A stretch of DNA of 36,580 bases from Methanobacteriota archaeon. GTDB lineage: Archaea; Hadarchaeota; Hadarchaeia; Hadarchaeales; Hadarchaeaceae. A program made the position numbers and the translations under genes. The notes beneath the pieces are model-generated. The model was given only the letters and a program-made list of their open reading frames with translations. It had not been told where the DNA came from and made no database searches. The DNA is taken from the NCBI GenBank assembly GCA_043821745.1, contig JBDRCL010000061.1, forward strand, positions 1 through 36,580, read 5' to 3'. This document shows positions 3,160 through 36,580 of this stretch, in pieces; position 1 is the stretch's first letter; each line of letters begins with the position of its first letter.

Positions 3160-3697
3160 CTGCCTCCATTTTGCCTACACCGCCTTTGAACAAGCTTCCG
3201 AATGCCGTCACTTGAAGCACCGGCCCGATCGCCTTCGAGCTCGGCATGGCTCTGAACTGAACCTTGAGGCCATTGTCCGTCGTTATCAGGGCGACACCGC
3301 CCGACTCTGGTAACTTGTCCGAAAGACTGATGCCCAAAAGTTTCCCGACGAATTCCGCAAACTCCTGCGCCCTGGGGCCGTCGGCATGTATCCTCAGGTC
3401 CTCAAGTTTACTGCTCCGACTAGCTTCCCGTTGAATTTTTACCTCCCCTAGCTCGACCATGGCGTCCACCCATCGCCAATCCCGGCCGACCTCGATAAAT
3501 CTAATTTCCTTGGGCTTTCCCGAGACGCTGTTTACGAAAATGACTCGATCGTGCCCGAGTTCTCGGGAAACTGAACCCACTTTTCCGACTGTCTTTGTCC
3601 CACGCGGAACGTACCGCGATCCTGGGATGACCCGGACAAGCCCCCTGCAGAGAATCCTCGCGAGTTGGCCCGGCCGCCTTGACGTCGTTATCAACAT
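3146..3697 (-). CDS. Brix-domain (Imp4-like) ribosome biogenesis protein
   Basis: N-terminus MLITTSRRPGQLARILCRGL...YVPRGTKTV is characteristic of archaeal Brix proteins. Superoperon context. Confidence 0.75.
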   Translation of the reverse strand: MLITTSRRPGQLARILCRGLVRVIPGSRYVPRGTKTVGKVGSVSRELGHDRVIFVNSVSGKPKEIRFIEVGRDWRWVDAMVELGEVKIQREASRSSKLEDLRIHADGPRAQEFAEFVGKLLGISLSDKLPESGGVALITTDNGLKVQFRAMPSSKAIGPVLQVTAFGSLFKGGVGKMEADEHG

Positions 3698-32235: not shown

Positions 32236-32240
32236 CCCTA

Positions 32241-32250
32241 ATTACTTATA
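32241..32250 (+). promoter_or_regulatory. TATA-like box (ATTACTTATA) positioned for a leaderless transcript starting near ATG 32272
   Basis: The box centre is about 26 nt upstream of ATG 32272, in the spacer after the MBL gene. Confidence 0.3.
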
Positions 32251-32271
32251 CCAATCGCCACAATTCTTGAG

Positions 32272-32328
32272 ATGGTCAACATGGCGGCTTCGAATGATTA
32301 TAACCCGCACGAAATCGAGCTGAAGTAA
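32272..32328 (+). other. 18-codon ORF encoding a ValRS-type N-terminus (MVNMAASNDYNPHEIELK*): orphan valS 5' exon or remnant
   Basis: Own translation. YNPHEIELK matches the Y-[DN]-P-x-E-x-E-x-K(W) start of archaeal ValRS. It uses host-like GC3-rich codons and stops (TAA 32326-28) exactly where the conserved Trp should follow. Confidence 0.55.
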
Positions 32329-32483
32329 AATTTTAGGTTTTCCCAAAATCCACTAAAATCTCAAACATCGAAAATGCGCTAACTTTCAAGGGCAAGTTAT
32401 TGAGAATTTACCAAAACTAATACTTTCGCGGCCCCTCCTCCGAAGTTGGTTAAATGTAAATCAAAATAATAACTGAGGCGAAG

Positions 32484-34094
32484 TTGTTGCTCTCCGTAAA
32501 TTTTTGGGATCTGCCACATCGGCGTACCTCCATTATCTTCTCTGAGGATTTTTCGCAGGTTATTCATAATACAGTGGCGAATTTGTTCGACAAAAATCTC
32601 ACCAAAGCGTCAAAAACAATTGGTATACCAAAAAGTCTTTTCTACCGCCTTGAGCAAAAAAGGCGCATTAGAATCGACAATCTTTTCAAGCTGCTAAATT
32701 TTTTAGGTGCTCGCGATTCAACATTTTCTACAAAGGCTGCCCAGAGACACTTAATTTGGATAGGACCAGCACATGGAAGAGGAATATCCAACCCTTGCTT
32801 TCCAATCGAGCTTCAGAACAATGCATTGGTGCGAACAGCCGCCAGAGCTTGTGGAGATGGGATTCTAACTAGAACTTATGGACTTCGCCATGGTTATGGA
32901 ACTATAATCTACTACGCAAAGGAGGATCCAGAACAGCTGCAAAACGCGATTGATGACGCCATCATTGCCTTTGGAGGAAATGTCCAAACATACAGGATTA
33001 ATTTCGGCAAGGACATCTACTTAGTTTACCCCACTGTCGTGCGTGATGTCTTGTTATTCGCAGGAGTGATGACAAGTCCAAAAGCAGAAAGCGAACGCGG
33101 CGTCCCGGAGTTTGTGATGAAAAGCGAAAAAGCGACTACTTGGGTTGCTTGGCTTCAACAAACGGGGGACGATGAAGGGCATGTTGTTTATCACCCGCAA
33201 CATAACCTATATGGCATCTACTGGCGTCGATCCACCGACATTACTGGACTCCTGCCTGGCATTGAGCTTAGGGCCGGGGAGCGGATTTCCATTCATATAT
33301 CATCAGACGACGTTCGGGAACACGTGGTAGGGCGATCACCGAAATTGATAGCCGATGAGCAGGGGCTTCTCAGTAGGCTCCGCATTACCTCCACAGTCAC
33401 TCCTTTGGAGATTTACCGAACTCTTAATGGAAAACTTCGGGTCAAGTGGCAACTCCGCATTAGCGGTCCTGATAACTTGATTCGATATGGTAGAAAAGTA
33501 GGGTTTCGGATTACGAGGAAATCAACCGCGCTAGCTAAAGCAATGGACCAATGCGTAAGTTACGAAAAAATTATCTTACCAATTCTTAACGACCTTCAAC
33601 AGAAACACGGCTACCTCGATGCAAGATCGGTATCAATGAGACTGGGCGGTTGCCTAGTTCCCCATTCAAACAAAACAACCATTTCCGGGTTGGTCGCTTT
33701 ACGAGAAATGTCCAAACGAGGCTATGTCCATAAAATAAGCGAGGGACGGTACATCAAAAAATTGAAGAAGTACATTCCATCAAGATACGTTATAACTAGC
33801 AAGGGAACAAGAAGGCTTAAAGAGATTTGCGACCAATTCCATTATCTGGATGAAAAGGTGGGAGGTGGTTCAGCGAATAAAGTGACAGCAGAAGTTCCGG
33901 CAGCTTACGATCCACTTGAGGCAGAACCAAAATGGCGGAAGAAGTGGAAAGAATTGGGTATTCACAGCTTCCGACGCGACGATTACGAAACGCCGACCTA
34001 TATTATCGATACCCCGCCGCCATATTCCTCGCAAGAGGGTGGAGCCGAGCGGGGAGTTCCACATGGGCACGGCGCTGAATTGGACGTACTTTGA
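32484..34094 (+). CDS. LAGLIDADG-like (double-motif) homing-endonuclease-type protein with N-terminal HTH and C-terminal winged helix; the ORF reads through into valS exon 1
   Basis: TTG 32484 has GAGG 5 nt upstream. HTH is [27 protein letters not shown]-like motifs are [14 protein letters not shown] (about 32830-32867) and [15 protein letters not shown] (about 33141-33185). Between and after them come the expected beta-strand/helix segments (...[18 protein letters not shown]). The wHTH is [18 protein letters not shown]...ITSKGTRRL. The last ~70 residues are the ValRS N-terminus plus out-of-frame read into intron 1 and exon 2. Low GC relative to its neighbours. Confidence 0.6.
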
Positions 34095-36580
34095 TATCGT
34101 CGCTCGCTATAAGCGGATGCGCGGCTTCAACGTGATGTTTCCCCAGGGATCCCCGTGAAGTGCTGTAACGGCATATTCATGGGCCTGAATGGGACTGTCA
34201 CGGGCTGCCCACCGAGGTCCAAGTGGAGAAACGCTACGGGATAAGAAAGGGCGACCTGCCGGCGGAGAAGTTCCGAGAGCTCTGCGTCAAGCTGACCAGC
34301 GAAAACATATCTCACATGCGAGAAGAGATGAACTCCTTCGGGTTTTCAATAGACTGGTCCACTGAGTACCGGACGATGGATCCGAGCTATTACGGCAAGA
34401 CCCAGCTTTCGTTCGTGCAGCTTTACAAGAAAGGGCTCATCTACAGGGGCGAGCACCCGGTCAACTGGTGCCCCCGCTGTGAGACCGCAATCGCGGACGC
34501 CGAGGTGGAGTACGGGGAGAGGAGCACCAAGCTGAACTACGTAAAGTTCAAGCTCGCCGGGGATGACGGGGCGTTGACCATTGCCACCACGCGTCCCGAG
34601 TACCTGCCGGCGTGCGTTGTGGTGGCGGTCCATCCGAACGACGAGAGGTACCGGAGATACGTCGGGGGAAAGCTCGAGGTCCCGCCATTCGGTCACGTCG
34701 TAGAGATTATAAAGGACACGGAGGTCGACCCTGGGTTCGGCACGGGAGTCGTGATGGTGTGCACATTCGGGGACAAGACCGACGTGCGCTGGGTGAAGCG
34801 CTACAAGCTGCCGGTCATCAAGCTGATCGATGAGAAGGGCGCGATGACGGAAGCCGCTGGAAAATATTCAAAGATGACGATGGAGGAGGCGCGACGCGCG
34901 ATAATCGAGGACCTGCGCGCGGCTGGATCGCTCGAAAAGCAGGAAGAGCTGCCGCAGAGCGTCGGTGTCTGCTGGCGCTGCAAGACTGTCGTCGAGATCT
35001 TGACGAAACCGCAGTGGTTCATGCGCGTGCTCGACCTAAACAAAAAAGTGGTCGAGGAGGCCAAACGCGTGAGGTGGGTACCGGACTACATGCGCACCAG
35101 ATTCGTCGACTGGACGAACTCGATGGACTGGGACTGGGTGATCTCGCGGCAGAGGATCTTTGCCACGCCGATCCCGGCCTGGTACTGCTCCAAATGCAGG
35201 GAACCGATAGTGGCTGAAGAGAAGCAGCTGCCGGTCAACCCTGCGAGGGACAAGCCGCCGGTCGAGAAATGCCAGAGCTGTGGCAACCAGAACTTCGATC
35301 CGGAACCGGACGTACTCGACACCTGGATGGACAGCTCGATAACTATCGCAGCTCATGCGGGATGGCCCGACATCGACCAACGTCTCTTCCCAGCCGACCT
35401 TCAGCCGAACGGGACGGACATCATCAGAACCTGGGACTATTACCTGATGGTCCGTCACCTCGCGCTACTGGGCAAGGCACCATACAAGACCGTGTTGGTC
35501 AACGGCATGGTGCTCGGAACCGACGGCAGGGCGATGCACAAATCGCTCGGGAATTACGTTGACAGCACAAAGGCCCGAGAGAAATACGGCGCCGATGCGC
35601 TCCGCCAGTGGGCGGCGATAGGGGCGTCGACCGGCTCGGACATACCGTTCACCTGGAAGGACGTGGAGTTCGGATACCGGTTCATGCGAAAGTTATGGAA
35701 CGCTGCCCGATTCGCCGGCCCGCATCTGAACTCAAAAGTTGCAAAGCTCGAGGTCAAAAAAATAAAGCTGACGCCCGTGGACCGCTGGCTCCTGAGCAGG
35801 CTCAACAGGCTGGTGAAGAACGTCACGGGATGGCTCGAGGACTTCCAGTTCAACCGTGCTCTCGGCGATATTCAAAACTTCGTATGGCACGAGCTCTGCG
35901 ACATGTACATCGAGGAAGTGAAGCACCGGCTTTACGCCGGCGACCGGACCACCGAAGCGGCCGCCTTCACCCTTTACCAGGCCATGCTGACTTCAGTCAA
36001 GCTCCTCGCCCCGTTCATACCTCACTTCGCCGAAGAAGTCTATCAGACGTACTTCGCCGGAGACCAGCAACTGCCGAGCGTTCACAGCTTCGGCTGGCCG
36101 GACGCCGACGAGAGCCTGATAGATGAATCCGCGGAGAAGCTCGGTGAAATTGCCAACCTTGCGATAAGCACTCTGCGGCAGTTCAAGTCCACGAGGAAGA
36201 TGGCCCTCAGCGCCGAGATACCAAAACTTGAGATCTACACGGCGAACAATGACGTCGCCAAACAGCTGAAGGAAATAAAAAATGATATCGCCGGCACCAT
36301 GCGGGTTAAAGAAGTTAAGATAATAACCAACAAGCCGGAGCTGAAAGAGCGCGTGCTCTCGGTGGAACCGAACCTGGCGAGGCTGGGTTCAAGATTGCGC
36401 GGCGACGTAAAGATCGTCACTGAGGCCCTGCGAAACGCCAAGCCGGAAGAAATCTCGAAACTTATGGGCAAGGGCAAAATGACCATAAATGAAGCAGGGA
36501 AAACCATCGAACTTTCAATCGAGGATTTGAAAATAGTCAGTGAACTGGAAAGCGAGGGTCACAAGGTCGAAGTCATCGAT
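33882..36580 (+). CDS. valS: valyl-tRNA synthetase, split by two BHB mini-introns (exons 33882..34025, 34045..34149, 34190..>36580; 3' end beyond window)
   Basis: Own three-frame reading gives (V)[47 protein letters not shown] | [35 protein letters not shown] | [18 protein letters not shown]...[21 protein letters not shown]...[16 protein letters not shown]...[12 protein letters not shown]...WFMRV...[17 protein letters not shown]...[10 protein letters not shown]...[11 protein letters not shown]...[11 protein letters not shown]... Exon 3 is an uninterrupted 797-codon frame to the window end; it is absent from the ORF track because it is edge-truncated. The start codon is uncertain (GTG 33882, or fusion to the upstream ORF). 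Confidence 0.88.
34026..34044 (+). other. 19-nt bulge-helix-bulge (BHB) intron 1 in valS
   Basis: Canonical hBHBh' geometry (see finding). Removal joins CCA UAU|CCG AGC, giving PPPY|PSGEFHMG in frame. Confidence 0.8.
34150..34189 (+). other. 40-nt bulge-helix-bulge (BHB) intron 2 in valS
   Basis: Canonical hBHBh' geometry (see finding). Removal joins CAG GGA|UGG GAC, giving FPQG|WDCHG in frame. Confidence 0.8.

Follow-up and report, generated by a model that had tools for sequence, protein, structure and literature searches.

In a 36,580-nt contig from a Hadarchaeota archaeon, analysed here over its whole length and referred to as the window, an orphan open reading frame of 18 codons precedes a second, complete 5′ end of valS, the gene encoding ValRS. 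We consider it very probable (roughly 85%) that this orphan is the resident start of valS, stranded when a mobile homing endonuclease cassette entered the locus carrying a replacement start and two BHB introns. This reading draws on the orthology of the orphan, a relic of valS, with the valS start of a relative that has no insertion, on the mosaic composition of valS and the position of its breakpoints, on the recurrence of the same arrangement in other lineages, on the BHB folds of the two introns and on the start codon of the downstream copy. The features of the locus are the following:

32240..32250, + strand, TATA-like box, putative resident valS promoter (function suggested by conservation with the insertion-free relative L001)
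32272..32328, + strand, stranded resident valS 5′ end of 18 codons (MVNMAASNDYNPHEIELK) and TAA
32327..32415, + strand, AT-rich filler separating the conserved cassette from the relic, with no blastn match in related loci
32416..32483, + strand, conserved leader of the cassette, from the alignment of nine regions upstream of endonuclease genes
32484..33881, + strand, LAGLIDADG-like homing endonuclease gene (homologs, motifs and weak fold matches)
33861..33867, + strand, Shine-Dalgarno sequence GGAGGTG of the replacement start, conserved in all endonuclease-bearing loci
33882..34025, + strand, replacement valS exon 1 of donor type, with a GTG start and ending in ...IDTPPPY, from the aligned starts of relatives
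34026..34044, + strand, micro-intron 2, 19 nt, between PPPY and PSGEFHMG, MFE fold hBHBh′
34045..34149, + strand, valS exon 2 (PSGEFHMGT...MFPQG), donor type
34150..34189, + strand, intron 3, 40 nt, between FPQG and WDCHGLP, canonical BHB, right end of the imported tract
34190..36580, + strand, valS exon 3 (WDCHGLP... to the window end), L001-like backbone with 83-90% nucleotide identity to L001

The orphan corresponds to the valS start of an insertion-free relative

A preliminary description of this DNA had reported a short ORF at 32272-32328 with a TATA-like box about 26 nt before its start codon. Both were found in place: the ORF runs from ATG 32272 to TAA 32326-28, and the box, at 32240-50, reads AATTACTTATA. 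The closest relative available for comparison, L001, carries neither the endonuclease gene nor the introns. The box is conserved with the region upstream of valS in this insertion-free locus (ACTTATACCAATCGCCACAA.TCTTGAGATGGTC), and positions 32240-32326 matched the promoter and the first 18 codons of the uninterrupted L001 gene with 88.5% identity over 87 nt (E=1.4e-26). At the protein level, the orphan product MVNMAASNDYNPHEIELK aligned with the L001 valS start MVNMEASKDYNPLEVEPK, and the N-termini of the proteins P0001, P0002 and P0004 start with MVNM or MVHM...DYNPLEVEPKW. The similarity to L001 ended at the junction between orphan and insert and picked up again only from 34050, and upstream of the orphan the ancestral gene order AsnC-MBL-valS was retained. 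The best ValRS matches of the contig were 83% identical, the named ones among them being Hadarchaeum or Hadarchaeales, and Rfam and tRNA scans of the whole window gave no matches. Public RNA and DNA sequencing runs were searched for the window and for L093, and none contained either sequence.

Because of the 88.5% DNA identity to the insertion-free L001 valS start, the orphan is, by DNA comparison, the resident valS 5′ end, cut off from its gene by an imported tract. The resident valS promoter would now drive the orphan ORF and probably reads through into the endonuclease cassette; the orphan itself probably plays no role in ValRS production. The TAA stop codon arises at the insertion junction. 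It had been pointed out that the ORF stops exactly where ValRS proteins continue with Trp. The position is correct, but it does no more than mark the junction, and the corresponding relics of other lineages break off behind codon 16, 27 or 31.

The second copy of the motif that had been described at 33900-33947 was also present, in the frame of a 536-codon ORF (32484..34094). The codon-usage contrast claimed for the two copies is real: GC3 was 0.72 in the orphan (n=18) versus 0.24 in the downstream copy (n=17), with values of 0.44 for the endonuclease ORF and 0.77 for the bulk of valS, and only 15 of 30 nucleotides were common to both. The match of 9-10 residues between the copies, on which the comparison had originally been built, is not significant alone; what stands is that each copy is independently homologous to the valS 5′ ends of relatives. 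When the suggested comparison with insertion-free relatives was made, the L001 valS start matched the upstream copy and not the downstream one. The earlier idea of a resident 5′ end displaced by an element with its own replacement 5′ segment was thus borne out, the upstream copy being orthologous to L001 and the downstream copy donor-like.

An endonuclease-like gene and a replacement valS start follow the orphan

The ORF between the two copies (32484-33881) can be assigned, with moderate confidence, to the LAGLIDADG-like homing endonucleases. We found 11 homologs with 63-72% identity, all annotated as hypothetical, as well as a paralog in L003 that is 31% identical. The family has two invariant LAGLIDADG-like motifs, one of which is ARACGDGIL, and the protein consists of an HTH-like N-terminus and a C-terminus of the PadR/MarR winged-helix type. 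Pfam LAGLIDADG_3 matched 10 of 12 members, but even the best of these matches (E 4e-4) did not reach the gathering threshold, and a search of Pfam with the window protein alone gave no match. A sequence profile search against the PDB gave no match either, and in NCBIfam the protein weakly matched intein-bearing DnaB and IF2. Its AlphaFold model had a mean pLDDT of 67, with residues 110-215 below 50; Foldseek searches with this model returned weak matches to PI-SceI, I-CvuI and I-DmoI (E 0.02-0.1) and strong PadR/MarR winged-helix (wHTH) matches for the C-terminal domain. The presumed endonuclease activity and its target are read from the breakpoints and the co-occurrence with introns described below.

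In the alignment of nine endonuclease-upstream regions, conservation began only at ~32416. Relatives have a promoter-like TATA box, TTTATAAAT, ~85 nt before the endonuclease start; this box is degenerate in the window (CCAAAACTAAT, 32411-21). The sequence GAGG (32475-78) lies 5 nt upstream of the TTG start codon of the endonuclease gene. The ORF has no stop codon of its own and continues in frame into valS. Since the cassette TATA box is degenerate and the endonuclease stop has been lost, the element may be decaying in the window. An endonuclease-ValRS fusion was considered as the product of this locus and rejected: the two are in frame in the window, but L084 has the endonuclease ORF in a different frame, and a stop codon is present in most relatives.

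The downstream copy is contiguous with valS and aligned with the starts of the endonuclease-bearing loci L084, L104 and L105. In most carriers, the end of the endonuclease gene is followed by GGAGGTG, 7-9 nt and the ATG of valS. The codon aligned to GTG 33882 is ATG in L104 and L105, where the start reads ...GGAGGTG...ATG GTG ACA GAA ATC CC (MVTEIPATYDP), and GTG in L084. In the window the spacing between the Shine-Dalgarno sequence and GTG 33882 is long (14 nt), and the N-terminus of the window subtype is three residues longer than in most carriers. Because the downstream copy comes with a Shine-Dalgarno sequence and a start codon, and because L084 has this start and no relic, GTG 33882 is most likely where ValRS begins, once the two micro-introns have been excised. 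L002 and L011 carry the same 5′-end type without any start codon, which shows that our understanding of how such alleles start is incomplete. A hidden intron that would provide L002 with a start codon was sought, and the one candidate, of 50 nt (3635-3684), was AU-rich, weak and at chance level.

The preliminary description had offered an alternative, namely that the orphan is the true first exon of valS. On this account a 1607-nt intron (32326-33932), holding the endonuclease gene, would be spliced so that Lys18 is joined to Trp19, encoded at 33933; the downstream copy would then be intronic, and detection of the ValRS N-terminal peptide MVNMAASNDYNPHEIELKW would contradict the stranded-start reading. 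The host evidently tolerates BHB introns in valS itself, LAGLIDADG genes are known in archaeal rRNA introns, and the orphan retains an intact ATG, promoter and reading frame. The predicted junction, however, formed only 2 of the 4 central-helix pairs and zero flanking helices (score 2/0/0), and the best of 728 register-compatible in-frame joins was no better than chance. Scanning 32250-32480 against 33700-33990 revealed no BHB above chance that would join the orphan to valS. Comparison with other loci also spoke against a first exon: L084 has the same replacement start without an upstream exon, relic-bearing relatives have a complete, ATG-started valS downstream, and a separate Shine-Dalgarno sequence and start codon (ATG in L104 and L105) serve the downstream copy. 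As no in-frame BHB connects the two copies, the proposed splice to Trp 33933 found no support; the alternative is disfavoured by the sequence, and we regard it as very unlikely.

Two BHB micro-introns interrupt valS

Three-frame translation showed that valS changes frame twice more downstream of the replacement start, after IDTPPPY (19 nt) and after MFPQG (40 nt). Removal of both segments gave ...PPPY/PSGEFHMGT... and ...FPQG/WDCHGLP..., as in every uninterrupted relative. The reconstructed spliced protein, partial at 881 aa, scored 1028 bits on the valS model NF009687 and covered profile positions 4-798 of 801. The MFE structure of both insertions was hBHBh′, with an outer exon-exon helix (8 bp for intron 2, 4 bp for intron 3), a 4-bp central helix that is completely paired at both introns (4/4), one 3-nt bulge on each strand and an inner hairpin. 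In every bulge the boundary that restores the frame comes directly behind the second nucleotide, the position at which a 2025 paper on the archaeal splicing endonuclease places the scissile phosphate (dU14/A15; PMC12397907).

Introns are present at these two valS sites in at least nine other lineages, with lengths of 16 or 19 nt for intron 2 and of 30, 37, 40 or 41 nt for intron 3, and all nine variants of each intron gave a canonical BHB in the MFE structure. The inner hairpins vary in length and sequence while their pairing is kept. Across the nine intron-2 variants, 98.6% of cells pair, versus 43-54% with slid partners, and the outer exon-exon helix shows one compensatory change from C-G to U-A. 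Every allele with an intron has the synonymous sites of the helix-forming exon sequences frozen (TTTCCCCAGGGA/TGGGA and CCGCCGCCATAT/CCGAGCGG), whereas the same sites vary freely in intron-less alleles. A loose BHB motif scan of the whole window gave 140 matches among ~10.2 million position/length pairs and is not diagnostic alone; for this reason the case rests on exact register, recurrence and exon constraint. The chance that a fixed boundary pair meets the strict motif is ~1.4e-5. One of the loose matches (32328/32428) brackets 99 nt of filler, restores nothing and was taken as chance. In view of these patterns both micro-introns look functional, and their excision from the mRNA would fall to the tRNA splicing endonuclease and ligase.

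The same observations bear on the possibility that valS of the window is a dead, frameshifted pseudogene, in which the duplicated start and the 19- and 40-nt insertions represent decay and the functional valS lies elsewhere. A literal reading does place the gene in three frames with in-frame stops, and a window of just 36.6 kb leaves room for a second valS copy outside it. Decay is nevertheless difficult to reconcile with two insertions that are both precise BHB motifs (~1.4e-5 per fixed boundary pair), with introns at the same codons in at least nine lineages that show structure-preserving variation and frozen exon synonymous sites, with a remaining 2.4 kb of uninterrupted ORF, and with a spliced protein that reaches 1028 bits on the valS model. 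We judge a pseudogene to be slightly less probable still than a first exon.

The imported tract ends at intron 3

The imported tract measures ~1.86 kb, from 32327 to ~34189. The displaced distance had been put at ~1.6 kb; the insertion is real, but the imported DNA is longer than that and takes in the 19- and 40-nt insertions of valS as well. Endonuclease-bearing lineages provide the closest matches to the downstream copy and to the ~250 nt of valS that follow it. In the sliding identity analysis, positions 33955-34140 had 81-91% identity to endonuclease-bearing loci versus 63-80% to L001, and from ~34180 the relation was the reverse, with 83-90% identity to L001 versus ~65-80% to the others. 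Informative sites changed in the same manner, with 19 donor-like versus 3 resident-like sites in 33895-34114 and mostly resident-like sites from 34213 to the window end. Because donor-like sites are followed by L001-like sites, the tract can be taken to extend from 32327 to a right breakpoint that, judged from these sites, falls within 34115-34212, where intron 3 lies.

A second, independent pair of alleles provided the same picture. L084, which carries the endonuclease gene, and L005, which does not, shared 70-86% identity in the sequence before intron 3 and 97-100% directly downstream of it. The boundary in this pair is equally sharp and falls right after intron 3, consistent with a co-conversion tract that ends near the presumed cleavage site. 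The intron 3 site is thus the likely target of the endonuclease.

A mosaic of this kind could also be produced during metagenome assembly if an L001-like strain and an endonuclease-bearing strain had been joined into a chimera, and the right breakpoint does lie in conserved coding sequence with k-mers common to strains. The left junction (32326/32327), however, has no shared sequence that could mislead an assembler, and both flanks of the tract belong to the same L001-like backbone. In addition, the architecture of relic, endonuclease gene and valS was found in several independent assemblies and lineages, and the L084/L005 pair shares the breakpoint. An assembly artefact is thus about as improbable as a pseudogene.

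The same footprint recurs in other Hadarchaeota lineages

In every related contig examined, endonuclease homologs were located directly upstream of valS. The endonuclease gene was absent from 8 loci, and both introns were absent there too (0/8), while all endonuclease-bearing lineages had at least one intron; among the loci compared, introns were never found without the endonuclease or a remnant of it. Alleles with and without the endonuclease are interleaved on the valS backbone tree (the window and L001, L084 and L005-L008, L002 and L004). The endonuclease gene is an optional gene of polyphyletic distribution at one fixed position between conserved genes. The diverged L003 paralog occurs with intron 2 only and all members of the main family have intron 3, which hints at two endonuclease/intron pairs. 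Comparison of the loci shows a mobile unit, composed of the endonuclease gene, the valS 5′ end and one or more introns, that spreads between lineages by gene conversion and has its right-hand limit at intron 3.

Analogous orphan valS starts were detected in three other lineages (five contigs). In L093-L096, a 16-codon relic (MEVSKDYDPLEVEPKW) is fused in frame to a HAD-hydrolase gene, which is followed by the endonuclease gene and a full valS. In L087/L098/L099, a 27-codon relic precedes an M48 peptidase gene of opposite orientation, which is followed by the endonuclease gene and valS. In L100/L101, a 31-codon relic runs directly into the cassette TATA box, and the endonuclease gene and a complete valS follow. 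L003, L084 and L090 have no relic, and their clean MBL-endonuclease-valS arrangement matches the ancestral order AsnC-MBL-valS. An integrase-type element that targets the valS 5′ end and supplies a replacement gene end would have a similar outcome, a diverged duplicate gene end flanking the insert with gene function kept, but it can be excluded as the least credible explanation because the insert encodes only the endonuclease-like ORF, with no integrase or recombinase ORF of at least 60 aa on either strand of 32327-33881, and because relic lengths of 16, 18, 27 and 31 codons leave no fixed att core, some carriers (L084, L090 and L003) having no relic at all.

Discussion

The stranded start, the mosaic and the introns can be brought together in the following scheme. 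The composite element of ~1.86 kb would have arrived from another Hadarchaeota lineage. The endonuclease would cut an intron-less valS at or near the FPQG/WDCHG codons, which are the insertion site of intron 3, and the break would be repaired from the element-bearing allele, with copying that proceeds leftwards through intron 3 and the valS 5′ end into the endonuclease gene. Where the left side recombined homologously in the upstream MBL gene, a clean insertion would result. Where it was joined illegitimately, the promoter of the recipient and its first 16-31 codons would generally be left behind as an orphan; in the window, the first 18 codons of the recipient would have survived upstream of the insert in this way. 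A left end-joining step and a later rearrangement would be indistinguishable at this junction. The introns of the carrier would interrupt the conserved target and so protect the carrier, as for F-CphI with the psbA intron (PMC6083498), and the tRNA splicing endonuclease and ligase would remove them to give an intact ValRS from GTG 33882.

Following this scheme, the locus is best read as the footprint of collaborative homing between a free-standing homing endonuclease and BHB introns in an essential archaeal gene. A broader proposal, to which we would give about even odds, is that Hadarchaeota harbour an archaeal form of collaborative homing in an essential protein gene, in which the LAGLIDADG-like endonuclease cuts FPQG/WDCHG, its paralog maybe cuts PPPY/PSGEF, and both spread with target-disrupting BHB micro-introns that the tRNA-splicing machinery removes.

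The locus bears on how BHB introns reach new sites. Here, two canonical BHB introns in an essential gene are tied physically and phylogenetically to a mobile endonuclease gene, and the breakpoints single out the intron site as the place of entry, which makes DNA-level mobility directly testable at the valS locus. If the broader proposal is true, it reveals one DNA-level route by which BHB introns enter protein genes, and mRNA introns would be on record for the first time in an aminoacyl-tRNA synthetase gene and beyond cbf5. Break repair by a selfish element can also duplicate a promoter and a gene start, and a neighbouring gene can capture the duplicate; orphan starts would then be a by-product that may hand a promoter and start codon to neighbours, as in the HAD fusion of L093/L096. 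There is a consequence for annotation too, since gene calling in these genomes routinely truncates valS to fragments of 768-855 aa and an orphan start can be mistaken for the real one.

Our literature search found no earlier description of an archaeal tRNA-ligase gene in which a free-standing LAGLIDADG-like gene travels together with BHB micro-introns and a replacement gene start and leaves orphan starts behind it. The single parts (free-standing homing endonucleases, collaborative homing, BHB introns in cbf5 and LAGLIDADG genes in rRNA introns) are each known; it is for their combination that we found no report.

Several known systems resemble the valS locus in part. Prophages that integrate in icd (e14 and phage 21) or in tRNA genes supply a replacement gene end. 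As in the window, a diverged second copy of the displaced end survives next to the insert, which contains the functional substitute, but the valS insert has neither an integrase nor an att site, and here it is the 5′ end that is replaced, there the 3′ end. The variable length of the relics points to break repair, not to site-specific recombination. Archaeal rRNA and tRNA BHB introns can carry LAGLIDADG endonucleases, such as I-DmoI and I-PorI. A LAGLIDADG or LAGLIDADG-like endonuclease is tied to BHB introns in both settings, and homing into conserved sites is presumed in both. In those introns, however, the ORF is inside the intron of an RNA gene, whereas here the endonuclease gene is outside, upstream of a protein gene, and the valS introns are too small to encode anything.

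In the literature searched, spliced introns in archaeal protein genes were documented only for cbf5, whose pre-mRNA contains BHB introns (Watanabe 2002; Yoshinari 2006; Yokobori 2009, PMC2738675); the available portion of the splicing endonuclease paper (PMC12397907) likewise cites only cbf5 papers for archaeal mRNA introns. The cbf5 and valS introns are alike in being short introns of protein genes with a BHB-like motif at their boundaries and a patchy presence among related lineages. They differ in that the cbf5 case concerns Thermoproteota, while valS has two introns, is found in Hadarchaeota, shows a fully canonical predicted hBHBh′ fold and is linked to an endonuclease gene. This linkage suggests mobility of the valS introns at the DNA level.

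Intronless homing of free-standing endonucleases is represented in T4-like phages by the seg and mob genes (PMC2790892, PMC2988022). There too, an optional endonuclease gene sits between conserved genes, and gene conversion with co-conversion generates mosaic genes with sharp identity breakpoints. The present system is, in contrast, cellular and archaeal, has introns at the far end of the insert and shows orphan 5′ gene ends, presumably left by repeated illegitimate resolution, a footprint atypical of the phage cases.

The collaborative homing of F-CphI and the psbA intron (PMC6083498) shares further traits with the locus. In both systems a free-standing endonuclease gene lies beside a conserved gene whose presumed target is interrupted by an endonuclease-less intron, endonuclease and intron co-occur and seem to move jointly, and flanking exon DNA is co-converted. 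Yet the host is an archaeon here and a phage there, the endonuclease is LAGLIDADG-like here and Endo VII-like there, and the introns are BHB introns of 16-41 nt with predicted splicing by proteins instead of a self-splicing group I intron. In the valS locus, moreover, ~310 nt of coding sequence including the gene start lie between the endonuclease gene and the intron, and because the gene start occupies this position, a replacement gene start travels with the element.

Expression of the endonuclease gene and fate of the displaced valS start

Analysis of the imported tract showed that the endonuclease ORF of the window (32484-34094) lacks the stop codon used by its relatives (in the related valS locus L104, a TGA after ...EICG) and continues in frame into valS. 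On unspliced RNA this ORF would end at 34094, and spliced RNA would yield an endonuclease-ValRS fusion. Because the endonuclease and valS of locus L084 overlap in a different frame from that of the window, the predicted fusion is probably incidental. The TATA box of the cassette (window 32411-32421) is degenerate, reading CCAAAACTAAT as opposed to TTTATAAAT in 7 relatives, and in the window the endonuclease may rely for its expression on read-through from the orphaned promoter of valS.

In loci L093 (4028-4690) and L096 (2265-2321), a gene for a HAD-family hydrolase carries the orphan valS start (MEVSKDYDPLEVEPKW) joined in frame to its N-terminus, and gene callers count this start as part of the hydrolase gene. 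The neighbouring gene appears to have captured the displaced valS promoter and start. In the window, a BHB-like motif (32328-32428; central helix 4 bp, outer helix 4 bp, inner helix 3 bp) encloses 99 nt after the stop codon of the orphan, approximately the non-homologous filler. No reading frame is restored by this motif, which belongs to a set of 140 loose matches in the window and is therefore probably due to chance.

Variation of endonuclease and introns among relatives

In locus L003 (2048-3106), the site upstream of valS that the main-family endonuclease takes up elsewhere is filled by a paralogous endonuclease, which is only 31% identical and has no C-terminal winged helix. The paralog is accompanied by intron 2 only, whereas intron 3 is present with all main-family members. 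There may accordingly be two endonuclease/intron pairs that differ in target.

Locus L087 (6493-6535), like L098 and L099, carries an endonuclease-bearing allele without intron 2. Despite the absence of this intron, the exons of the three loci still carry the signature seen in intron-bearing alleles, CCGCCGCCATAC|CCGAGCGGAGAA, with the Ser codon AGC, which suggests that intron 2 was lost secondarily and precisely.

Loci L002 (3570-3760) and L011 contain a valS with both introns and a window-type 5′ end (KRKVPAVYDPLASEPKW), and their endonuclease gene is reduced to a remnant of ∼50 nt from its 3′ end. No in-frame ATG, GTG or TTG was found upstream of the conserved ValRS N-terminus in either locus, because a 9-nt deletion took out the start codon present in the window, L084, L104 and L105. 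A weak 50-nt BHB-like candidate in L002 (3635-3684) would provide an ATG; its score is at chance level.

ValRS signature and annotation

In the window (34057-34068), ValRS has FHMGT as its class I 'HIGH' signature, with Thr replacing the last His. The Thr is common to all Hadarchaeota relatives whose sequences cover the motif, two of which have FHIGT and the others FHMGT, and it looks like a lineage trait and not damage.

In public protein sets, many Hadarchaeota ValRS entries (P0052, P0054, P0058, P0059, P0072 and others) are gene calls of 768-855 aa with a truncated N-terminus. Entry P0058 begins at the site of intron 3, and P0052 just past that of intron 2; annotation pipelines evidently miss the valS introns.
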